Part shown: positions 4,983-17,750 of the stretch, piece after piece | How the letters are laid out: every line of letters starts with the position of its first letter | Position numbering within the stretch: position 1 is the stretch's first letter | UHGV virus genome: UHGV-0162636 | Direction: 5' to 3' (one strand) | Source of the DNA: a virus | DNA: 17,750 bases | Position numbers and translations under genes: made by a program | The notes under the pieces: model-generated | What the model was told of the DNA's origin: nothing | Databases searched by the model: none | The model's input: the letters and a program-made list of their open reading frames with translations, nothing else

Positions 4983-5008
4983 TTACCTCAGTGTTACCGT
5001 TGAGGTAA
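4983..5008. promoter_or_regulatory. Inverted repeat TTACCTCA-N10-TGAGGTAA overlapping a candidate leftward early promoter (operator-like)
   Basis: 8-bp arms at 4983-4990 and 5001-5008 share the TTACC/GGTAA half-site with the window-wide palindrome. A minus-strand TTGACT (-35, 5031-5036) and weak -10 lie just upstream in transcript terms. Confidence 0.45.
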
Positions 5009-5055
5009 TAATTATCCTTATGTGGTTTGAAGTCAATAGGTATGATTATAAAAAA

Positions 5056-5070
5056 TTACCTGTAAGGTAA
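5056..5070. promoter_or_regulatory. 15-bp palindrome TTACCTGTAAGGTAA (candidate operator, copy A)
   Basis: Perfect TTACCT-N3-AGGTAA. Located between the repressor-gene terminator and the leftward promoter. Confidence 0.55.
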
Positions 5071-5080
5071 CGCTTCTGGC

Positions 5081-5107
5081 AATAAAAAAGCCGCTCAATG
5101 GCGGCTT
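5081..5107 (-). terminator. Rho-independent terminator downstream of the repressor gene
   Basis: On the minus strand: 7-bp GC-rich stem (5088-5094 pairing with 5101-5107), 6-nt loop, followed by a TTTTATT run. Confidence 0.5.
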
Positions 5108-5127: not shown

Positions 5128-5718
5128 TTAATCTTGCGCTTTACCGTTCTGAACAATCACAAAATCGACGTAGCTCTCAATCTTGCTTTTCTCGCTCTCA
5201 GGTAACAATGCGTAGCGGGCCCGGTCGTAATGGATGGTCGCCGGGTCGCGGGGATGGATGAGCAACTCATAGCCGCGGCGCCCGAACGCGCCAGCGATCG
5301 CCTCCAGGGTGGAGATAGAAACGCTAACCTCATTGTTCAGCATGCGCTGGATTGTCGCCTGGGCAACGCCGGACGCTTTAGACACCTTTCCCTGAGACGA
5401 CAGGTCGCGGTTATTCTGCATCCACGCTTCGAGATTATGCGCCGCCAGCTGGCCGATATCGGAAGGGGTGATCTCCTCCTGCGGTATGGCAACAGCAGAT
5501 AATGAGTGGTCTACGTCCAGCCAGTTCGACGGCTTGTTCGCCGCCTTCTCAATCTTGCGCGCCACCGTGTCGCCGATAACCTTCTGCCCGCGGGCCCAGC
5601 GGTTCACCAGGTTGGCCTGAGTTCCCAGTTTTTCCGCCAGACGAGTCTGCACCCCGTTAAAGTCACGGTCGATGATATCGTTAATATTCTGCCTGCGGAT
5701 ATCCTGAATACTTTTCAT
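5128..5718 (-). CDS. Prophage repressor (CI-like) with two tandem XRE-type HTH domains and no LexA-like S24 peptidase domain
   Basis: 196-aa ORF. HTH-like segments GVQTRLAEKLGTQANLVNRWARGQ and KASGVAQATIQRMLNNEVSVSISTLEAIAGAF. No Ala-Gly/Ser-Lys autocleavage domain visible. Divergent from the Cro-like gene. Confidence 0.8.
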   Translation of the reverse strand: MKSIQDIRRQNINDIIDRDFNGVQTRLAEKLGTQANLVNRWARGQKVIGDTVARKIEKAANKPSNWLDVDHSLSAVAIPQEEITPSDIGQLAAHNLEAWMQNNRDLSSQGKVSKASGVAQATIQRMLNNEVSVSISTLEAIAGAFGRRGYELLIHPRDPATIHYDRARYALLPESEKSKIESYVDFVIVQNGKAQD

Positions 5719-5773: not shown

Positions 5774-5788
5774 TTACCTCACAGGTAA
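5774..5788. promoter_or_regulatory. 15-bp palindrome TTACCTCACAGGTAA (candidate operator, copy B1) in the repressor/cro intergenic region
   Basis: Perfect TTACCT-N3-AGGTAA in the divergent promoter region; an additional GGTAA half-site follows at 5801-5805. Confidence 0.6.
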
Positions 5789-5821
5789 ATGCACCCGACA
5801 GGTAACAAACCTTGATTATTA

Positions 5822-5837
5822 TTACCTTCTGGGTGAA
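5822..5837. promoter_or_regulatory. Degenerate operator-like site TTACCTTCTGGGTGAA inside a candidate rightward promoter
   Basis: Lies between a TTGATT -35-like hexamer (5812-5817) and a weak -10 upstream of the Cro-like gene. One arm deviates (GGTGA instead of GGTAA). Confidence 0.4.
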
Positions 5838-5872: not shown

Positions 5873-6103
5873 ATGAGCGAGAACGAAAAATTCGACTTCA
5901 AAAAACACTGGTTGCAACTCACTCCTGATGAGCGAAATGCCTTTGCTGACGAGGCAGGAACTACCAGCCATTACATCCAGACGCATCTGACAGGTCGCCG
6001 GAAAATGCCAGGTAAGACATTGATGAATGGGCTGTTTAAGGCATGCAAACAGCGCGGATGGGTCAGAACAAAGCCGGAACTGGCCATCTTCTTCTACGAA
6101 TAA
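5873..6103 (+). CDS. Cro-like small HTH regulator (YdaS/Cro family)
   Basis: 76-aa ORF divergent from the repressor; HTH-like LTPDERNAFADEAGTTSHYIQTHLTGRRKMPGKTL. Confidence 0.7.
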   Translation: MSENEKFDFKKHWLQLTPDERNAFADEAGTTSHYIQTHLTGRRKMPGKTLMNGLFKACKQRGWVRTKPELAIFFYE

Positions 6104-6147: not shown

Positions 6148-6252
6148 CATATCTATTCAGTTCTCTCAGGTAATAATGATCCGAATATGGTTGATCTTTT
6201 TTCGGCCATCGCACAAAATTACCGTAATAGTAAACGTCAATGAGGTTGCGTA

Positions 6253-6462
6253 ATGGAGATTATCACTCGTCTGGACGCTGCAAAGGCAGGTCTTAAGCGT
6301 TATTACACCGGTAAAAAGTGCAAACACGGTCATGACAGTGAGCGTTACGTCTATAACGGCCATTGCGTTGAGTGCGCCATCAACTCAAGTCTGCGCCGCC
6401 AGGCGGAGATTAAACGGATTATGGATGAAGCTGCGAAAGGCAACGTGCCGGAGGTGATCTGA
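6253..6462 (+). CDS. Small zinc-ribbon-like protein in the cII position
   Basis: 69-aa ORF with CKHGH...NGHCVEC (four Cys/His ligand candidates). GAGG Shine-Dalgarno upstream; stop overlaps the start of the O-like gene. Confidence 0.55.
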   Translation: MEIITRLDAAKAGLKRYYTGKKCKHGHDSERYVYNGHCVECAINSSLRRQAEIKRIMDEAAKGNVPEVI

Positions 6463-7232: not shown

Positions 7233-8014
7233 ATAACGTATTCGCAGCAATTCAGAATCGTGATGCTGGTGCCATGGCTCGCATGATGGGCCCGGACAAT
7301 CACCATGATCAGCAGGACAACGTTGTTAACATCAGCGCAGAGCGTCTCGTCGATGCCCTGTTTAAACAGCTTAAGCAACTCTTTCCTGCAGCTGAGCAGA
7401 CCAACCTGAAGACCGCGCAGCAGGAAACCGACGCGAAGCGCCAGTGGATAGCCGCATTCGCTGAAGGTGGGATCCGTACCCGCGAGCAGGTATCGGCAGG
7501 TATGCGTCATGCCCGCGCCAGTGAATCACCGTTCTGGCCTTCGCCCGGGCAGTTCATCAAGTGGTGCAAGGACAGCAAAATGGTGCTTGGCGTGAGCATC
7601 GAGGACGTGATGGGGGAGTTTCACCGTTACGCCAAAGAGAAAAGCTTACAGCCCGGAGGACCTGAGAGATTCCCGTGGCGCCACCCGGTCATGTACTGGA
7701 TTGTATGCGATACCCGCCGTGCGATGTACCAGCGCCAGCTGAGTGAGGTGGAAGTTGAGAGGCATGCGCGCAAACTGCTTGAGGAATGGGCTACGAAAGT
7801 GGCGGCCGGTCACCAGATTCCGGATCCGGTTCTCAGCATCCAGGCGAAGCCAGAGCCGATACAAACACCGGATGACACAGGGGGGAGTGCTTACCACCCT
7901 CCCGGAAAAAGCTTCGGATGCATGCCGAATTCCGCCACCCTTGGAGGGCTGACACCGGCCCAGTGGTTGATGGAGGAATACCGGCGAGGGAAGGCAGCGG
8001 GACTCATCAGGTAG
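7229..8014 (+). CDS. P: Replication protein P homolog (DnaB helicase loader, lambda P family)
   Basis: 261-aa ORF. LFPAAEQTN...KRQWIAAFAEGGIRTREQVSAGMRHARASESPFWPSPGQFIKWCKD aligns by eye with lambda P (FPASLANRDQ...RRQWVLAFRENGITTMEQVNAGMRVARRQNRPFLPSPGQFVAWCRE), recalled from memory. Confidence 0.85.
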   Translation: MNNVFAAIQNRDAGAMARMMGPDNHHDQQDNVVNISAERLVDALFKQLKQLFPAAEQTNLKTAQQETDAKRQWIAAFAEGGIRTREQVSAGMRHARASESPFWPSPGQFIKWCKDSKMVLGVSIEDVMGEFHRYAKEKSLQPGGPERFPWRHPVMYWIVCDTRRAMYQRQLSEVEVERHARKLLEEWATKVAAGHQIPDPVLSIQAKPEPIQTPDDTGGSAYHPPGKSFGCMPNSATLGGLTPAQWLMEEYRRGKAAGLIR

Positions 8015-8051
8015 CACCAGCGCGGCAGCGCATTTTTTTACGCCTGTATAA

Positions 8052-8066
8052 TTACCTTGCTGGTAA
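8052..8066. promoter_or_regulatory. Variant palindrome TTACC-TTGCT-GGTAA (copy C1)
   Basis: Same 5-bp half-sites at the same centre-to-centre spacing as the perfect copies, but the inner base pair differs. Confidence 0.4.
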
Positions 8067-8113
8067 CAAAATATGCGCATAGCTATTTATTTTAACTCTA
8101 ATGTGGATTTAAA

Positions 8114-8128
8114 TTACCTGAGAGGTAA
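8114..8128. promoter_or_regulatory. 15-bp palindrome TTACCTGAGAGGTAA (copy C2) overlapping the ribosome-binding site of the 8132 gene
   Basis: Perfect TTACCT-N3-AGGTAA ending 3 nt before the ATG at 8132; the GAGGT inside it is the likely Shine-Dalgarno. Confidence 0.55.
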
Positions 8129-8131
8129 GCC

Positions 8132-8923
8132 ATGACAGCAATATTAGGGATTGACCCGGGATGCAGCGGGGCGCTGGTTCTCGTAACTGAGCAGGGCGGA
8201 TACATCGACCATCTGGCAATGCCAACCATCAAGGTCGGCACAAAGTCCAGGGTGAACGGCGCAGCGGTAGCTGCATGGGTTCGGCAGTACGGAATCACTC
8301 ATGCGTACCTAGAGCAGGTCGGAGCCATGCCAGGACAGGGAACGGCAAGCATGTTCACGTTCGGGCATGCAGCTGGCGTACCGGCGCTTAAATTCCTCGC
8401 TTCATACATAGCAGGCACGACATTGGCTGGGATGTTTGCAAACCAGATGAACAGCCTATTGACCGGCAATGACCCACTGGATATGACAAAGCCAACTACA
8501 TGGGTGCAGGCTCTGCTGAAGGGCGGCTCATTCGGTATCTACGGCGATTTCCTTTTCCAGGACCATACGCAATATGGATCCAGTATCGCGGCCACCATCG
8601 GGGGGCCGGTGCTGAGCTTCGCCGAGCAGTTAACCAAACTTCTGATCACGAACCCGCAGAAGGCATTGCAGGGCGAAGAAACTTCTTTCGGTGCCGATGC
8701 GCTGAAGACGGCGCGCATGATCACCCCATTCGCCAACCTCTGGTACGCGAAAGCCATTACCAACCACCTGATACTCCAGCAACTTCAGGAGATGGCTAAC
8801 CCAGGGTATAACGACAGGGTGCGTGACAGAGCGCAGCGTGAATTCAACACGACGAGCTGGTGGGAGCCTGGCGAGACAACGCCTCGCCGCGCACCAGACC
8901 TCGGGAAGGCAGTGGGGCAATAA
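8132..8923 (+). CDS. Chimeric ORF: RuvC-like Holliday-junction resolvase N-terminus (about 85 aa) fused to an unrelated C-terminal segment, possibly a virion or DNA-injection protein fragment
   Basis: N-terminus MTAILGIDPGCSGALVLV matches the RuvC-type ILGIDPG motif. After about residue 85 the sequence no longer resembles a resolvase. A complete resolvase would be about 160 aa. Confidence 0.5.
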   Translation: MTAILGIDPGCSGALVLVTEQGGYIDHLAMPTIKVGTKSRVNGAAVAAWVRQYGITHAYLEQVGAMPGQGTASMFTFGHAAGVPALKFLASYIAGTTLAGMFANQMNSLLTGNDPLDMTKPTTWVQALLKGGSFGIYGDFLFQDHTQYGSSIAATIGGPVLSFAEQLTKLLITNPQKALQGEETSFGADALKTARMITPFANLWYAKAITNHLILQQLQEMANPGYNDRVRDRAQREFNTTSWWEPGETTPRRAPDLGKAVGQ

Positions 8924-9114
8924 TGGATATATTGATCAAGATAGGCATGATTCTGTTCTGGTTTGCGTTCTTCGTGGTATGCGGCACGGCGTATGTTTGG
9001 GCGGTAATATTCGCTATCAGAAAAGGTTGGCTTGGCGAGACCTCTGCGAAGGTCGTTTACTTCGCGACCTTCGTCATTCTCGCGGCTATAGTGTTTAAGC
9101 TACCATTACTGTGA
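8923..9114 (+). CDS. Small hydrophobic membrane protein (63 aa, two predicted TM segments)
   Basis: Internal ATG at 8923 overlaps the TAA of the upstream ORF. Sequence MDILIKIGMILFWFAFFVVCGTAYVWAVIFAIRKGWLGE...FATFVILAAIVFKL is strongly hydrophobic. Confidence 0.5.
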   Translation: MDILIKIGMILFWFAFFVVCGTAYVWAVIFAIRKGWLGETSAKVVYFATFVILAAIVFKLPLL

Positions 9115-9123
9115 CATGTCACA

Positions 9124-9146
9124 AGGCCGCTATGCGGCCTTTTTTT
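9124..9146 (+). terminator. Rho-independent terminator (probably works for both convergent genes)
   Basis: AGGCCGC-tat-GCGGCCT stem-loop followed by TTTTTT. The T-run overlaps the stop codon of the minus-strand gene. Confidence 0.6.
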
Positions 9147-9405
9147 AAGTCGTTTCCTGCTTCAGTTTTTCCACACAGTAATCGAGATGCATCTGCAGAT
9201 CCTTCATGGACATCTGCGAGCTGGTGACGTAGTTCACCAAGGCAGTTAGTTCCGCCATCGGGCCATCAACGTTAAATCCGTCCTCATTCAGTTGTCGCAG
9301 CAACGTCATCAGATGTGATTCTTCTACAAGGGAGCGGACGCCTCCCGGCGTGTGTATGCGTTCGGCAAATCCTTTTTCCAGCGGGTGATGATACTGACGT
9401 TGCAT
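9145..9405 (-). CDS. Small SOS-regulated protein (86 aa), candidate antirepressor or moron of unknown function
   Basis: ATG at 9405 with GGAGAA Shine-Dalgarno; the track's TTG start at 9423 is less likely. A near-consensus LexA box lies 20-39 bp upstream. No motif recognised in the protein. Confidence 0.55.
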   Translation of the reverse strand: MQRQYHHPLEKGFAERIHTPGGVRSLVEESHLMTLLRQLNEDGFNVDGPMAELTALVNYVTSSQMSMKDLQMHLDYCVEKLKQETT

Positions 9406-9424
9406 CTCATGTTCTCCATGCAAT

Positions 9425-9444
9425 TACTGTATGTATGTACAGTA
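9425..9444. promoter_or_regulatory. LexA (SOS) box TACTGTATGTATGTACAGTA
   Basis: CTGT-N8-ACAG with an AT-rich spacer, matching the enterobacterial SOS-box consensus TACTGTATATATATACAGTA at 18 of 20 positions. Immediately upstream of the 9145..9405 gene. Confidence 0.65.
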
Positions 9445-9481
9445 GCAAAACTTTGAAACACTATCCAGCACGATATGAGCT

Positions 9482-9496
9482 TTACCTGAAAGGTAA
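9482..9496. promoter_or_regulatory. 15-bp palindrome TTACCTGAAAGGTAA (copy D) between the SOS-regulated gene and the tailspike gene
   Basis: Perfect TTACCT-N3-AGGTAA; a further AGGTAATAA half-site at 9541-9549. A TATAAG -10-like hexamer lies about 30 bp downstream on the plus strand. Confidence 0.55.
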
Positions 9497-9600
9497 TAAC
9501 TTTCATGATTGTTATTCATTCAATTCATATAAGGTTTGCTAGGTAATAAACTGTCCAGATGATGCATGCGCGCCGGGCGCTGCTTTATTGGAGACAGGCC

Positions 9601-12351
9601 ATGACGGTATCAACCGTAGTTGACCATAACGATTACACCGGGAACGGCGTTACGACATCATTCCCTTACACCTTCCGAATTTTCAAGAAAGCAGACCTTA
9701 CCGTTTCAGTGATTGACCTGAGCGAAAACATCACGGTACTGGTGCTGGATACTGACTACACCGTGACGAACGCTGGTGGCTTTAACGGCGGAAGTGTTGT
9801 TCTTACCTCGCCGCTGGCGAACGGTTGGCAAATATCGATTGCCCGCGAGCTGGAGGCAACGCAGGAAACAGACCTGCGCAATCAGGGTAAGTTTTTCGCT
9901 GAGGTGCATGAAGATGCATTCGATAAACTGACGATGCTGATTCAGCAGGTGGGCAGTTTGTTCAGCCTGGCATTGCGTAAACCGTCGTTTGTGGCAAATT
10001 ATTACGATGCCATGAGTAACTATATTAGAAATCTGCGAGATCCGGTAAGGCCACAGGATGCAGCAACTAAAAATTATGCTGATTCATTAAGCGAAGGAAA
10101 TACTTCACATACAGATTTGTTATTCAGCAGAACGCTTCGTACGGAAGAAAGCATCCCACAATTACCATCTATTGAGTTACGAAAAAATAAAATTGTTGGT
10201 ATGGATTCATCTGGTAATCCGATTATGCTTCTTCCGGAAAGCGGAAGCGCAGCGGATGTCCTCATTGAATTAGCAAGCACTGATGATGGGAAGGGGGATT
10301 CCTTAATTGGCGTAAAACAGCCTTATGCTGGAGCGGTAGGGCGTACGCAGCATGATTTTAACGCGCAGTTTATCAGTATTAAAGACTTCTTAGGCGATGA
10401 ATATTCCGGCGCAACGGACGCCTCACCGGCATTCTCTACCGCAAACGCCCTAGTGCCAAAGGGCAAGCAAATTCTCGTTCCTGCTGGAAACTACATGCTC
10501 AATACCGAAGTGGACTGCTACGGCCGCCACTTCATTTTTGAAGAGCCAGTAACGATAACAGGAACCGGATATCTTCGCCGTGCTGTTGTTCAGCGTATTG
10601 ATGGTGGTTCCGGGGCTGTAAGTATTGGAACTGAAGGCGTTCGCGGTTCGGATGGGCACCCGCAATTTGGTGTTAACTTCAGGTTTGGGAGCAATGCTGG
10701 CAATGTATCCGGTCTACAGGTTGGTGGCGGAAACCCAATTAATGGAACTTATGGTAATGTTTTCTTTCCGGATGGCTATTCGTCATGGACTTCAGTACAA
10801 CCAAGTAAATACCCAAGCCCGACAGAGATCGCAGTCCAGCCAGCTTCTCGCGCGGGTAAATGCACAACTGTTGCCGGAACTAATATCGTAAATGTAAATA
10901 CAGGACCAGGCTTAACGGTTGATGAAATTGGAAAAACAATATGGATCAGGGATGCTGGGTATACGGTGGTATCAGTGGCATCAGGATCATTTACAGTGAA
11001 AAACATCGATAACAGCGCGGTGTCATTTCCGTCATCAATATCTGCAACCTATGTATGCTGTTACATTTGGGGGCAGGGTAAATGCAATGTATCGGGGAAG
11101 AAAATTATTCGTATATCTGGCGACCCATTTATTCCGCTCAACAATATACAAACTACGTTCGTAGTGAATGGCATTACGACTGTACAGGCATCATATTCTG
11201 ATTCTTGGTTAGCCACACTTACCGCGGATGTAGGTATTGCTGATAATGTCGACTATTATTGGTGGGGTAGTGTAGATAACTTAGTTACTGCATTGCGTAT
11301 GCATCGTGTTACCGGAGCTGGATTTGAAGAAAATATTTCTCTTATTGCTTCTGCTCGGGGATTTTATCACCTACACGCAGCTGGTGGTAACGGTGACCAG
11401 TATCCAGTATTTATTGGTAGTGGGTGGGATCCGGACGGCAATGCACGACGACAGATCACTGTTGATGGTGTAAATGGCATAGTCACTATAGGGGGGGCAT
11501 ACGGGCGAGCATGTGCAGAGTTCGGTTATCGCACATACTCTTCTGGAGACGTGAATAGATTTCGTTTTGATAGTGCCACTACTGGTGATCAACCTGCTTT
11601 TAGCGCTGTCGGCCCTGATGCGAATATAAATACTATTCTGGCCGCGAAAGGTAATGGGTTTATTCAAATAAATAATGAACTACATTTTAATGCCGCTATT
11701 TACCCGCATGTAGATAATATGTTTACCGTTGGTAAATCTGGAAATCGCCCTTCATCTATTTGGGCTGCAAATGGAACAATTCAAACATCTGATGGAACTT
11801 TAAAAACTGATGTGGCTGAAAGCAACTTATCGATAGAGTTTATTAAAGGGCTGCATCCGGTATCATATCGTTTCATCAGTGGGGGGAATGTTGTTGAAGA
11901 AATTGATGACGGATTTGAATATATAGAACGGCAGGTCACTGAGATTATCCATAGTACAGAAGAGATTAACGAGCGAATTAATGTTGATGGTGTAATCAAA
12001 TTTGTAAGAAAATATGTTACAAAAGAAGTTGAGCACCCGGTATTTGATACTGTTAACGTTGAAGACGAAAACGGTAGTTTCCTTGAGACGGTCAGCATTC
12101 CTCGCATGGAAACTGTAAGGGTACCAAAGAAAAAAACGGTTATCACTTCGGTTGCCGGTAAGCGTACCCATTACGGCTTTATCGCTCAGGAAGTTAAAGC
12201 CCTACTTGATCAACTCGGCACTGGCGACTTTGGTGGATATGTAGAGGGTGAAGATGGGGAGATTGGTTTACGTTATGAACAATTCATAGCACCAATTGTA
12301 TCAGCGATGCAAGATGTAATAAAAAGAATTGAAAAATTGGAAGGCAATTAA
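9601..12351 (+). CDS. Tailspike/tail fibre protein: conserved N-terminal anchor, central beta-helix depolymerase-like domain, C-terminal intramolecular chaperone (peptidase S74-like) domain
   Basis: ATG at 9601 with GGAGACAGG Shine-Dalgarno (the track's start at 9559 is less likely). N-terminus TVSTVVDHNDYTGNGVTTSFPYTF...DAATKNYADS is tail-fibre-anchor-like. Centre has DDGKGDSLIGVKQP...FISIKDFLGDEYSGATDASPAF, resembling pectate-lyase-fold tailspikes. C-terminus SDGTLKTDV...HYGFIAQEVKALL...IEKLEG is typical of auto-cleaving chaperone domains. Confidence 0.8.
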   Translation: MTVSTVVDHNDYTGNGVTTSFPYTFRIFKKADLTVSVIDLSENITVLVLDTDYTVTNAGGFNGGSVVLTSPLANGWQISIARELEATQETDLRNQGKFFAEVHEDAFDKLTMLIQQVGSLFSLALRKPSFVANYYDAMSNYIRNLRDPVRPQDAATKNYADSLSEGNTSHTDLLFSRTLRTEESIPQLPSIELRKNKIVGMDSSGNPIMLLPESGSAADVLIELASTDDGKGDSLIGVKQPYAGAVGRTQHDFNAQFISIKDFLGDEYSGATDASPAFSTANALVPKGKQILVPAGNYMLNTEVDCYGRHFIFEEPVTITGTGYLRRAVVQRIDGGSGAVSIGTEGVRGSDGHPQFGVNFRFGSNAGNVSGLQVGGGNPINGTYGNVFFPDGYSSWTSVQPSKYPSPTEIAVQPASRAGKCTTVAGTNIVNVNTGPGLTVDEIGKTIWIRDAGYTVVSVASGSFTVKNIDNSAVSFPSSISATYVCCYIWGQGKCNVSGKKIIRISGDPFIPLNNIQTTFVVNGITTVQASYSDSWLATLTADVGIADNVDYYWWGSVDNLVTALRMHRVTGAGFEENISLIASARGFYHLHAAGGNGDQYPVFIGSGWDPDGNARRQITVDGVNGIVTIGGAYGRACAEFGYRTYSSGDVNRFRFDSATTGDQPAFSAVGPDANINTILAAKGNGFIQINNELHFNAAIYPHVDNMFTVGKSGNRPSSIWAANGTIQTSDGTLKTDVAESNLSIEFIKGLHPVSYRFISGGNVVEEIDDGFEYIERQVTEIIHSTEEINERINVDGVIKFVRKYVTKEVEHPVFDTVNVEDENGSFLETVSIPRMETVRVPKKKTVITSVAGKRTHYGFIAQEVKALLDQLGTGDFGGYVEGEDGEIGLRYEQFIAPIVSAMQDVIKRIEKLEGN

Positions 12352-12358
12352 GTAGATT

Positions 12359-12391
12359 GGTGGGGCTTACGCCCCACCTTTTTATTTTTTT
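12359..12391 (+). terminator. Rho-independent terminator after the tailspike gene
   Basis: GGTGGGGC-ttac-GCCCCACC stem-loop followed by TTTTTATTTTTTT. Confidence 0.7.
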
Positions 12392-13500
12392 AATTCTGAT
12401 AATTGTTTTTCGATTTTTGAAACTCTTTCATCAAGTTTTAGTAGGTCATTTAATTTCTTGCCATTAATGTAAACATCCCCATTAATGTAAACGCCGCCAT
12501 CGTTGTCGACTGCAAGAACTTCTTTAGTATTATCATTTGAGACTATACGAGTTCCACCTTCGCCGTTTCTTATTGAAATCCAGTTGCGCTTATCTTCTGA
12601 ACCGTTCCAGCGAGTGCCTCCATATATTTCTCCCGACTTTCCTTCATTCAAGATAATACCGGTACCAACACCTTCTGTGCGTGCCTGCATTATCCCTTCG
12701 CGGAATAGAGATCGCCTAAAGTCAAAACCCATCTTGGCTTTATCAAAATCAGCAACAATGAGCCTGCCATAATCAGCTATAGAATTCTTGAAGTAAATCC
12801 CACTTTCCCAGACACCGCGACGCTTCTCTGCTGGTACATCTTTATCTGTATCTTCGCTTCGCACTTCTACGGCCATGGAGTTTGGATTTCCAAAGCCAAC
12901 TATCTGTAAGCCCACTTTGGACTTATTGGGGAATACTCCGGGCTTGCCGCCATTAAGGACATCAATCTCAACCCCTACGAGTTGGTTATCATAGTCTTCT
13001 GGATTGAATGTGAAATCTGAACCAGCCGGTGCCAGATCATGATATTTCCCATCCTTTGTAAAGGCCTTGAAATATGAACGAGCGCTAAAGAATGCCCCCC
13101 ACGCCTTTGAGTCTTTAGCAATGGCAGCAGAATCACCCCAGATGGAGACAGCGTTGGTGTTTGGTTTAAAATTCCATACTTCACTCAGGAAGTTTTGATA
13201 GTGATTGTGAACGCTATCATAATTATCGGCATTCTGATTTGTTAAATCATGGGCTTTTACTGGCTCACCTTTCCAGTTGTAGAACTGTGAATTAGGTTCA
13301 ATGACATCAGTGAGAATTTCATGACCGCGCAGGGCTGTATCAAGACCTTCGTATTGAGTCCAAATGCCATTTGCTCTTGGGTGATTACCTCTTACAGTAA
13401 CCTCATTTAATTTTTCATTGCCATTATCATCTTGTGAATATCCCGGCCCTGATATAAAAAGGCAACTTAATCCAAAAACAAAAAAAGAATTAACTTTCAT
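12382..13500 (-). CDS. Secreted protein of unknown function with Sec-type signal peptide (AT-rich cargo gene)
   Basis: 372-aa ORF. N-terminus MKVNSFFVFGLSCLFISGPGYSQ has the n/h/c-region architecture of a signal peptide. C-terminus has GGVYINGDVYINGKKL and a coiled-coil-like tail. GAGGAA Shine-Dalgarno. GC content well below the flanking phage genes. Confidence 0.7.
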   Translation of the reverse strand: MKVNSFFVFGLSCLFISGPGYSQDDNGNEKLNEVTVRGNHPRANGIWTQYEGLDTALRGHEILTDVIEPNSQFYNWKGEPVKAHDLTNQNADNYDSVHNHYQNFLSEVWNFKPNTNAVSIWGDSAAIAKDSKAWGAFFSARSYFKAFTKDGKYHDLAPAGSDFTFNPEDYDNQLVGVEIDVLNGGKPGVFPNKSKVGLQIVGFGNPNSMAVEVRSEDTDKDVPAEKRRGVWESGIYFKNSIADYGRLIVADFDKAKMGFDFRRSLFREGIMQARTEGVGTGIILNEGKSGEIYGGTRWNGSEDKRNWISIRNGEGGTRIVSNDNTKEVLAVDNDGGVYINGDVYINGKKLNDLLKLDERVSKIEKQLSELKK

Positions 13501-13501
13501 C

Positions 13502-13741
13502 TTACAAATTCCTCACTATTATTACATTTACATTTTGTAGCAGGATGGTATGTTGCCAAATTTTTTGGTTGTTATAATTATCATCACATCTTTCAGTGTC
13601 TGAAATAAAACATTCGTGTTCGTTTTTATATTTATTCCACGCTTTTTGCTCCATTTGATTATCGATTGCGGAAAGAGCAAGAACTGCAAACAGCGCTATT
13701 GCAAAAGAGAGGGATATGTATTTGATAATTTTGCCAATCAT
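13502..13741 (-). CDS. Small membrane-anchored or secreted Cys-containing protein (79 aa), co-oriented with the secreted protein
   Basis: Hydrophobic segment ISLSFAIALFAVLALSAI followed by a polar region with three Cys (ECFISDTERC). No clear Shine-Dalgarno; AT-rich. Confidence 0.35.
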   Translation of the reverse strand: MIGKIIKYISLSFAIALFAVLALSAIDNQMEQKAWNKYKNEHECFISDTERCDDNYNNQKIWQHTILLQNVNVIIVRNL

Positions 13742-15735: not shown

Positions 15736-15887
15736 CATGGCATTTTTCATGGCACTGATTTCCGGTGACGGTATATAAAACGGTACGGTGAAAATCAGAT
15801 TGCATAAAATTGTTACCAGTCAATTGGTTATGTGTGTCGTAAATAATTGAGTGGGAATGATTTTAATCCCTGCACTATGAATGAACA

Positions 15888-15916
15888 AAACCCTCTGTTA
15901 CTATAGAGGGTTTTTT
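15888..15916. terminator. Rho-independent terminator between the convergent spanin and host-side genes
   Basis: AAACCCTCT-loop-AGAGGGTTT stem followed by TTTTTT on the plus strand; T-rich on the other side as well. Confidence 0.65.
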
Positions 15917-15954
15917 ATCTTCAAGAATCATAGGCTTGAAGTTACTAACATCGA

Positions 15955-16494
15955 TTAATTAAACCAGCTGTCCGATTTGTTCTCTTCTGCTTTGCCCACG
16001 CTTTTCATCAGATCGCGACCGCCTTCAGTCATATTTCTGTTGGCGTCAGCTTCAGATTGCACCACATCGGTTTGCGCAGCTTTGTGCTTCAGTTCCTGAT
16101 CGATAAATTCGTTTTCTCGCTTAACGCGGGCTTCTTCTTTTGCCAGCGCCAGTTTTTGTTTCTGAATCTCTAAGCTGCGTAGCTCATCTTCATAACTTTG
16201 ATCGCGTTTTTTGTCCGCAGAGGCTTCGGCGTCCAGTTTATCCTGACGAGCTTTCTTATTTGCTGCTGCCGTTGCCGCTCTTTTGTTAGCGGCGGCCTGG
16301 GCATTTGCGCGACGTTGCTTCTCTTGCTGGATTTCCCTGTTGCGCTCCGCGACCCATTCGTCATGCTGCCTTTGCTCTTCATTTTTACCTTGCTGTTCCG
16401 CTTCTGCTACAGCAGAGAGTTGATCCTGCAATGATGAGGCGATAGCCGGATAGCTTAAGGAGGCCAAGATGGCGCAAAGAAAAACTTTCTTCAT
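15955..16494 (-). CDS. Exported (periplasmic) charged coiled-coil protein of unknown function
   Basis: 179-aa ORF; signal peptide MKKVFLCAILASLSYPAIASS, then a highly charged K/E/Q/A-rich helical sequence. Lower-GC context suggests it lies outside the prophage. Confidence 0.65.
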   Translation of the reverse strand: MKKVFLCAILASLSYPAIASSLQDQLSAVAEAEQQGKNEEQRQHDEWVAERNREIQQEKQRRANAQAAANKRAATAAANKKARQDKLDAEASADKKRDQSYEDELRSLEIQKQKLALAKEEARVKRENEFIDQELKHKAAQTDVVQSEADANRNMTEGGRDLMKSVGKAEENKSDSWFN

Positions 16495-16509
16495 GACTCC
16501 TCCTGATTA

Positions 16510-17028
16510 TTAGCTCTTTTCAGGACATTTAGTATTTGGCTGAATACGCGTTTCGTTATACGTTGTGGTAATAACAACGGCTAAACCTGTCGTAAACTGG
16601 CACTCTTTACCCACCTGGGTAGAGGTATACACTTTGGTGCCTTCCTTATATGTTAAAGAAACACCTTCCACTAAGGTTTTATCATTCACCATAGAACCCG
16701 CTGCCGCGCCTACAGCTCCGCCGCCAACTGCCCCTGCCGTCGTTCCGGAATTGCTGCCAGAACCGACGTTGTGGCCGATAACACCGCCAGCAACTGCGCC
16801 AATAAGCGCGCCGAAGGCTTGTGCGTTCCGTTTATTTTGGGAGTTGTCTACGGCAACTTTTGCGGGAAGAATGGAAATAATATTAACGGTTTTAGTTTCT
16901 TGTTTGGTATTCAGTTGATCGGTTTGATAAACATCGGCGGCATGATCGTCAGCATTTGACTGGCATCCTGCCAGAGTGAATGACGCTAACATTGCCACAG
17001 GCAGAAGACATTTTTTAAATTTCATCAC
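16510..17028 (-). CDS. Glycine-zipper outer-membrane lipoprotein (SlyB/Pcp-like)
   Basis: 172-aa ORF; lipoprotein signal with lipobox LAGC; central GALIGAVAGGVIGHNVG...AGAVGGGAVGAAAG glycine-zipper repeats. Confidence 0.7.
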   Translation of the reverse strand: MMKFKKCLLPVAMLASFTLAGCQSNADDHAADVYQTDQLNTKQETKTVNIISILPAKVAVDNSQNKRNAQAFGALIGAVAGGVIGHNVGSGSNSGTTAGAVGGGAVGAAAGSMVNDKTLVEGVSLTYKEGTKVYTSTQVGKECQFTTGLAVVITTTYNETRIQPNTKCPEKS

Positions 17029-17338
17029 TATTCCTTGTTATACACATTACGAAAAATAAGACATTTAAGATCATCAAAAGAGGAAAGTAAATGTATTGCG
17101 TATAAAGGGATAGATTAAATTTATTAAAATTCACGCAGGGAATAATTTATAAAAATATATCATTACAACATATATATTAATTTTATATTTATTTCGCAGC
17201 CAAACAGGATAAACATCAGTCAGGACAAAGACGTAAAATTTAAGATGAAAGAATATCTGCCGCTTTGATAATTCCAAAGAGCAAAAGCATCCGACAGCGA
17301 AGTGCCGTTAGGTTCTGTGAAAGTGGAGAAGGTAACCG

Positions 17339-17512
17339 CTAACGTTGTACCGGTGATTCGACGGAGAGTGTGGATTGCTGAGCTTCTTTTTTGCTCTGAT
17401 GGTGCTGCCAGGCACCGACGGACGAGTAGATAAAACGGCCAAAGAAGAAGATAAAGCTGATGAGCAGTACGATACGGGTCATGCGACTGTTAAATCGGTG
17501 TCGTTTTCGCAT
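17339..17512 (-). CDS. Possible small inner-membrane protein (57 aa from ATG at 17512; the track start at 17530 is GTG)
   Basis: Basic N-terminus MRKRHRFNSRMTR followed by one hydrophobic segment IVLLISFIFFFGRFIYSSVGAW. Weak Shine-Dalgarno; overlaps a plus-strand ORF of similar length. Confidence 0.3.
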   Translation of the reverse strand: MRKRHRFNSRMTRIVLLISFIFFFGRFIYSSVGAWQHHQSKKEAQQSTLSVESPVQR

Positions 17513-17750
17513 ACTGGTTGCCTGACTCACAAAAGGTTCCTTGAAGTATGTCCCACGCTGTGGACGGTACTTACATTAAGGCACAACAGGACAAAATGGT
17601 CAATTCTTCGTTATGTAAAAAAGCGTCAGTGGATACATATTTTAATGTTATGGAAGTTAATTTAATTATTTACAATGATGATGTAATAATGATGAATTAA
17701 CATGATAAACGTAATAATTCATTAATCAGGGTTATTTTGTTTGATATATA

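Follow-up and report, generated by a model that had tools for sequence, protein, structure and literature searches.

The open reading frame at 5128..5718 of the window (the whole 17,750-nucleotide stretch analysed, UHGV virus genome UHGV-0162636) encodes what is, judging from its homology, an immunity repressor orthologous to Rep of Salmonella phage SPC32H, whose repressor–antirepressor system has been solved structurally. The product very probably works as an SPC32H-type Rep, with an N-terminal DNA reader, a middle domain for dimerisation, a C-terminal domain for tetramerisation and docking of the antirepressor Ant, and induction driven by Ant. Besides the homology and the domain layout of the protein, we found in the window its operators in their characteristic arrangement, the ant gene and a LexA box. 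The gene itself was taken from the list of open reading frames.

5128..5718, minus strand: rep, 196 aa from an ATG start; immunity repressor and SPC32H Rep orthologue as assigned by homology

A sequence search of the PDB aligned residues 1–192 of the product with residues 2–197 of 5D50_A, labelled 'Repressor' (E = 3e-48), and its C-terminal half with 5D4Z (Rep 92–198). The two structures were reportedly presented by Kim et al. (PNAS 2016), and the SPC32H antirepressor Ant is said to have been described by Kim and Ryu (J Virol 2013). Pairwise alignment with SPC32H Rep gave 90 identical residues of 196 (about 44–46%), and the identities of the N-terminal, middle, and C-terminal domains were 58, 38, and 44%, respectively. 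PHROGs repressor families matched both halves of the product. The prior suggestion that rep encodes an immunity repressor is thus borne out by homology over the full length.

At the nucleotide level, the DNA around rep was 94.7% identical to Enterobacter phage BUCT554 (Uetakevirus) and approximately 76% identical to phiV10 and its relatives. Orthologues with 66–96% identity included the putative repressors of Escherichia phage phiV10 and of Enterobacter phages BUCT554 and Tyrion, and the orthologue of Salmonella phage epsilon15 showed 43% protein identity. All four phages have the rep–cro module in common with the window, and their repressors are known from annotation. The GenBank record of phiV10 already annotates its repressor with 'two helix-turn-helix motifs (PF01381)', and given the crystallised SPC32H relative, the presence of two helix-turn-helix (HTH) units is an ordinary finding. 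The PGAP/GenBank label for the product is 'helix-turn-helix domain-containing protein' and nothing more.

The protein was divided into the following segments.

5503..5718, minus strand: Rep aa 1–72, N-terminal HTH and presumed DNA-binding domain, with HTH_3 and YdaS/Cro-like matches and a net charge of +4
5458..5502, minus strand: Rep aa 73–87, variable acidic linker, with pLDDT <50 at aa 75–85 and with indels
5254..5457, minus strand: Rep aa 88–155, second XRE/HTH_3 fold, equivalent to the SPC32H MDD, with an HTH_3 match, a five-helix model and a 5D4Z match
5131..5253, minus strand: Rep aa 156–196, putative C-terminal tetramerisation and Ant-binding domain (CAD/TetDloop), recognised by conserved residues and the SPC32H alignment, its function assigned by homology

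In a Pfam scan of the whole protein, HTH_3 matched two stretches (E = 7e-13, 48.8 bits against a cut-off of 23 bits). Scanned alone, aa 1–75 matched HTH_3 at 24–67 with 22.5 bits, slightly below the cut-off, and also the Cro-like YdaS family (24.7 bits), while aa 86–156 matched HTH_3 at residues 108–148 of the full protein (31.5 bits, E = 1.8e-7). Two XRE-type HTH units, which the sequence-only reading had placed at approximately residues 20–70 and 110–155, were accordingly present rather than a single one. The recognition helix of the N-terminal unit spans about aa 35–43 (ANLVNRWAR). BLASTP of the N-terminal domain against the rest of Rep returned zero alignments between the two HTH units, and a recent internal duplication as their origin was therefore rejected.

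Structure prediction of Rep alone, which had been suggested as a check, gave an AlphaFold2 model (a single chain built on 39 homologues, pLDDT 78) with a helical domain at 4–59, a five-helix domain at 88–153, and a C-terminal helix at 174–194. The linker was disordered at 75–85 (pLDDT <50), and in the homologue alignment aa 73–87 formed the least conserved segment of Rep. In a Foldseek search the model was closest to the chains of 5D50 and 5D4Z, and ordinary XRE regulators came next.

No match to Peptidase_S24 or any other protease family was obtained with Pfam, even at E ≤ 10, nor was there an AraC-family match, and all 196 residues were covered by non-protease domains when Pfam and the AlphaFold2 model were combined. 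The claim that Rep has no LexA-like cleavage domain therefore stands. The same reading had gone on to deny Rep a C-terminal LexA-like dimerisation domain, and here it overlooked a conserved domain of 40 aa. Pfam gave no match for aa 157–196 scanned alone; in the family alignment, Y164, D165, L172, P173, K177, E181, and F186 were invariant or nearly so. Residues F187 and F190 of the SPC32H tetramer interface align with Y183 and F186 of Rep, respectively, and F186 was invariant across 39 family members. Because aa 156–196 match the tetramerisation and Ant-binding domain of SPC32H, Rep can be expected to carry an oligomerisation domain.

The net charge was +3 to +6 in the N-terminal domain versus -1 to +1 in the middle domain. 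The family alignment showed no variation at R125 and very little at Q120, both in the third helix of the middle domain; the equivalent of Q120 is a proline in SPC32H Rep, with the operator core unchanged there. By analogy with SPC32H, the N-terminal domain (aa 1–72) is the probable DNA reader.

As to the DNA that Rep would read, a palindrome TTACCT-N3-AGGTAA had been proposed as the operator. The palindrome is real, with 7 matches at two or fewer mismatches in the window versus 0.32 expected, and the hexamer AGGTAA occurs 26 times versus 5.1 expected. Its extent had to be revised, as the unit conserved over nine loci is TTACC-N5-GGTAA, with 5-bp half-sites and a variable central 5 bp. The nine loci were the window, SPC32H, phiV10, Tyrion, BUCT711, Raoultella, Serratia, and E. 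coli prophages, and one contig of a Logan run assembly. Six perfect sites of this form were found in the window, and nine at one or no mismatch versus 0.33 expected. The sixth base of the half-site, mostly T in the window and mostly A in SPC32H, was considered as a specificity determinant and rejected, because both TTACCA and TTACCT sites occur within SPC32H. The candidate operators and the elements around them are listed below.

5774..5788: TTACCTCACAGGTAA, perfect OR candidate operator immediately before the -35 element of the rightward promoter, at a position common to 8 related loci
5791..5805: GCACCCGACAGGTAA, degenerate OR candidate operator overlapping the rightward -35 element, read from the sequence
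5822..5836: TTACCTTCTGGGTGA, OR candidate operator that departs from the 10-position core at one base, located at the rightward -10/+1 region
5795..5822, plus strand: promoter-like site of the cro-like gene, CCGACA-16-TATTAT, a consensus match only
5873..6103, plus strand: cro-like small regulator of 76 aa, matching phrog_35 'transcriptional repressor' (E = 2.7e-10)
4994..5008: TTACCGTTGAGGTAA, OL candidate operator directly adjoining the leftward early -10 element
5056..5070: TTACCTGTAAGGTAA, OL candidate operator on the upstream side of the -35, at a spacing of 62 bp from the other OL site
5008..5036, minus strand: promoter-like site of the leftward early operon, TTGACT-17-AATTAT, a consensus match only, flanked by both OL operators
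5088..5107, minus strand: terminator-like hairpin after rep
8052..8066: TTACCTTGCTGGTAA, candidate operator that begins a third pair, located downstream of the replication genes
8114..8128: TTACCTGAGAGGTAA, second candidate operator of the third pair (62-bp spacing), coinciding in part with the putative ribosome-binding site of the open reading frame at 8132
9482..9496: TTACCTGAAAGGTAA, single candidate operator between ant and the tailspike gene

The OR sites bracket the promoter-like site of the cro-like gene, which is divergent from rep and identically placed in all relatives, and, at a distance of 17 bp from the perfect OR site, a homologue of the degenerate site also occurs in SPC32H and other loci. 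The 62-bp spacing at OL was kept in most of the nine loci, and the third pair has its SPC32H counterpart at 35972/36034. Indeed, the SPC32H operators occupy the same four positions as those of the window (OR, OL, downstream of the replication genes, and beside ant) with equal 62-bp spacing, and the operator layout was conserved in the nine loci, which represent six host genera. Paired operators are separated by approximately 47 bp, and reading of the sequences in between revealed no conserved motif apart from promoter-like hexamers. A promoter scan of 7950–9650, including the third pair and the ant-proximal operator, found no consensus promoter.

Two further observations concern single sites. 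TTACCTGAGAGGTAA stops 3 nt short of the ATG at 8132, and the probable Shine-Dalgarno sequence of the gene starting there is the GAGAGG at the centre of the operator. An operator-like site with one mismatch, TTACCGTAATAGTAA, was located at 6219–6233, 20 nt upstream of a 69-aa open reading frame at 6253, and could be a chance occurrence.

The motif NL[VI][NS]RW of the N-terminal domain was invariant in all nine of the Reps sharing the TTACC half-site. When operators and third helices were compared over the nine loci, the TTACC core and this motif were invariant and the middle-domain helix was fairly conserved. The comparison weakly favours the N-terminal domain as the reader; since the whole family keeps one and the same operator core, covariation has no power to show which domain reads it.

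The antirepressor and its control region were located elsewhere in the window.

9145..9405, minus strand: ant, 86-aa antirepressor, matching 5D50_E 'Anti-repressor protein' (E = 9e-44)
9425..9444: LexA box TACTGTATGTATGTACAGTA, a perfect match to TACTGT-N8-ACAGTA, upstream of the ant start codon with 19 bases in between

Ant shared 68 of 86 residues (79%) with chain E of 5D50. The arrangement in SPC32H matches that of the window, with ant, a LexA box at an equal offset, and the tailspike gene on the opposite strand, and the distance from the LexA box to the ant-proximal operator is 37 bases in both (the SPC32H site being 20013–20027). The view that this repressor needs a trans-acting antirepressor is upheld, because an Ant orthologue lies behind a perfect LexA box in an SPC32H-like arrangement. 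Through the single operator at 9482–9496, with the LexA box on one side and the tailspike gene on the other, Rep may also act on the promoter of the tailspike gene or on ant. We also observed that Ant is much better conserved with respect to SPC32H (79%) than its target Rep (46% overall and 44% in the Ant-binding C-terminal domain), which suggests that cross-induction between Uetakevirus prophages may be possible.

In papers that cite the primary SPC32H study, three domains of its Rep are described: DNA binding is placed at the N-terminus, dimerisation in the middle domain (MDD), and tetramerisation via F187 and F190, together with Ant binding, in the C-terminal domain (CAD) (PMC9986798). SPC32H Rep is described as forming dimers and tetramers, of which the tetramer binds DNA and the dimer does so weakly, and an Ant tetramer as binding two Rep dimers (PMC9638917). 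The pairs of N-terminal domains that read the palindrome were proposed to form across different Rep dimers (PMC6868357), and Ant synthesis is stated to come after LexA cleavage (PMC7380047, citing Kim and Ryu 2013).

From this homologue we infer the oligomeric state of Rep, the domain that touches DNA, and the action of Ant. The second XRE-fold domain (aa 88–155) would be a dimerisation module, not a second reading head, and the short beta-alpha C-terminal domain (aa 156–196) would join two dimers into a tetramer and dock the antirepressor. A pair of identical N-terminal domains would sit on each 15-bp TTACC-N5-GGTAA palindrome; having two such pairs, the tetramer could therefore hold two operators simultaneously, and the operators bound in this manner would flank or overlap the early promoters. 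Upon DNA damage, LexA would leave its box at the ant promoter, and the 86-aa Ant would be produced, bind the C-terminal domains of Rep, and bring Rep off the DNA. The occurrence of most operators in pairs or triplets fits an oligomer with several DNA-binding units.

An unlikely variant is the cis geometry of lambda CI, in which both N-terminal domains of one dimer would occupy each palindrome and tetramerisation would serve cooperativity only. The conserved 62-bp operator spacing fits cooperative binding by a dimer of dimers equally well, and the sequence alone is compatible with cis and trans pairing alike; however, trans pairing was proposed in the SPC32H study, according to which the dimer binds DNA weakly (PMC9638917, PMC6868357).

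It is very unlikely that both HTH folds contact DNA within the oligomer, with pairs of N-terminal domains on the palindromes and the paired middle domains adding contacts, specific or not. XRE domains commonly pair so that both recognition helices face DNA, and this general pattern speaks for such contacts, as do the higher HTH_3 score of the middle domain compared with the N-terminal domain, its third helix with the invariant R125 and the nearly invariant Q120, and the approximately 47 bp that separate paired operators. Against them stand the net charge of the middle domain (-1 to +1), the replacement of Q120 by proline in SPC32H Rep despite an equal operator core, and the recurrence of nothing but promoter-like hexamers between paired operators. 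In the literature on the homologue, moreover, the middle domain appears as a dimerisation domain only (PMC9986798). We regard as highly improbable the more elaborate form in which the paired middle domains grip the promoter between operators 62 bp apart, so that the promoter would be wrapped by eight HTH units of two classes.

Scarcely credible is the binding mode put forward by the sequence-only reading, in which a single Rep chain would place two different HTH units on both half-sites of one palindrome as a monomer, similar to MarA/SoxS: Rep does have two HTH_3-type units, the second of which keeps the canonical HTH_3 signature, and its disordered linker of approximately 15 residues could span half-site centres 9–10 bp apart, but the inverted half-sites are identical and thus require two identical readers, whereas the HTH units of Rep are unrelated in sequence, with no detectable similarity; the basic charge is confined to the N-terminal domain, the C-terminal tetramerisation domain is conserved, the operators are mostly paired or in triplets, and in papers citing the SPC32H study the homologue is a DNA-binding tetramer and a weakly binding dimer that uses its second unit for dimerisation (PMC9638917, PMC9986798). 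That reading had named binding as a conventional dimer as the outcome contrary to its monomer, and the published behaviour of the homologue, if it extends to Rep, corresponds to this outcome in spirit.

The element that carries this SPC32H-type Rep system is a defective epsilon15/SPC32H-like (Uetakevirus) prophage in E. coli, between guaA and yfgI. The flank at 15800–17750 consists of E. coli yfgI-yfgH-yfgG, and guaA adjoins the integrase in sister loci with identical Rep, on the side corresponding to 1–1300 of the window. This rep was present in only 17 of 5426 complete E. coli genomes. The open reading frame at 8132–8923 (plus strand) is chimeric, with a junction near 8381; its initial 83 residues are 100% identical to the start of a RuvC-like resolvase that is intact (154 aa) in sister prophages such as locus L007, and it continues with the last ~180 aa of an 824-aa SPC32H_018-like virion protein. 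It follows from this fusion that a deletion has taken out the packaging genes together with almost all of the virion genes; the defective prophage that is left measures about 15.7 kb. Retained are the immunity module, ant, the tailspike gene, the lysis genes, and the end of one virion-protein gene. Among the sister genomes, the resolvase/virion region was intact, disrupted by an IS, or similarly deleted. The open reading frames at 12382–13500 (372 aa) and 13502–13741 (79 aa), both on the minus strand, had no match in Pfam or PHROGs; they occupy the interval between tailspike and holin, where relatives have O-antigen modification genes (gtr, oac).

The gain for annotation is that rep can be named an SPC32H-type Rep, with operators, Ant, and a LexA box assigned; beyond annotation, rep has little significance. 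Uetakevirus repressors down to 44% identity have a common TTACC-N5-GGTAA core, a common operator layout, and a highly conserved Ant. The shared core, layout, and recognition helix raise a modest question on immunity specificity, cross-induction, and heteroimmunity among Uetakevirus prophages.

Among known systems, the AraC-family proteins MarA, SoxS, and Rob are, to our knowledge, the sole well-known precedent for one chain with two HTH heads. In these proteins, which act as monomers on asymmetric sites, the HTH units are joined by a rigid helix, whereas in Rep the linker is disordered, the site palindromic, and the folds XRE-type; Rep is thus not a rigid two-HTH chain on an asymmetric site. 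Rco of the Bacillus plasmid pLS20 resembles Rep in having an N-terminal HTH, a C-terminal beta-alpha tetramerisation domain, and a protein antagonist, and the tetramerisation domain of p53 (TetDloop) has been grouped with Rco and Rep by the beta-alpha C-terminal tetramerisation domain (PMC9986798). Rco differs in having no middle XRE-fold dimerisation domain, and the C-terminal domains have no sequence similarity to one another. With lambda CI and LexA-type repressors, Rep has in common an N-terminal HTH on palindromic operators at divergent early promoters, oligomerisation that would link separate operators, and induction tied to the SOS response. Unlike them, Rep has no C-terminal Peptidase_S24 domain with the Ser-Lys dyad and Ala-Gly cleavage site of autocleavable repressors, and in place of RecA-stimulated autocleavage the SOS signal would reach it via the LexA-repressed antirepressor. 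The differences from SPC32H are a Salmonella host as opposed to E. coli for the prophage in the window, middle and C-terminal Rep domains that are just 38–44% identical, and, in the window prophage, the loss of its packaging genes along with almost every virion gene. Overall, the likeness to SPC32H comprises the three-domain Rep with its aromatic interface residues, the operator core and its four positions, the equal offset of the LexA box from ant, the ant–tailspike synteny, and membership in the genus Uetakevirus.
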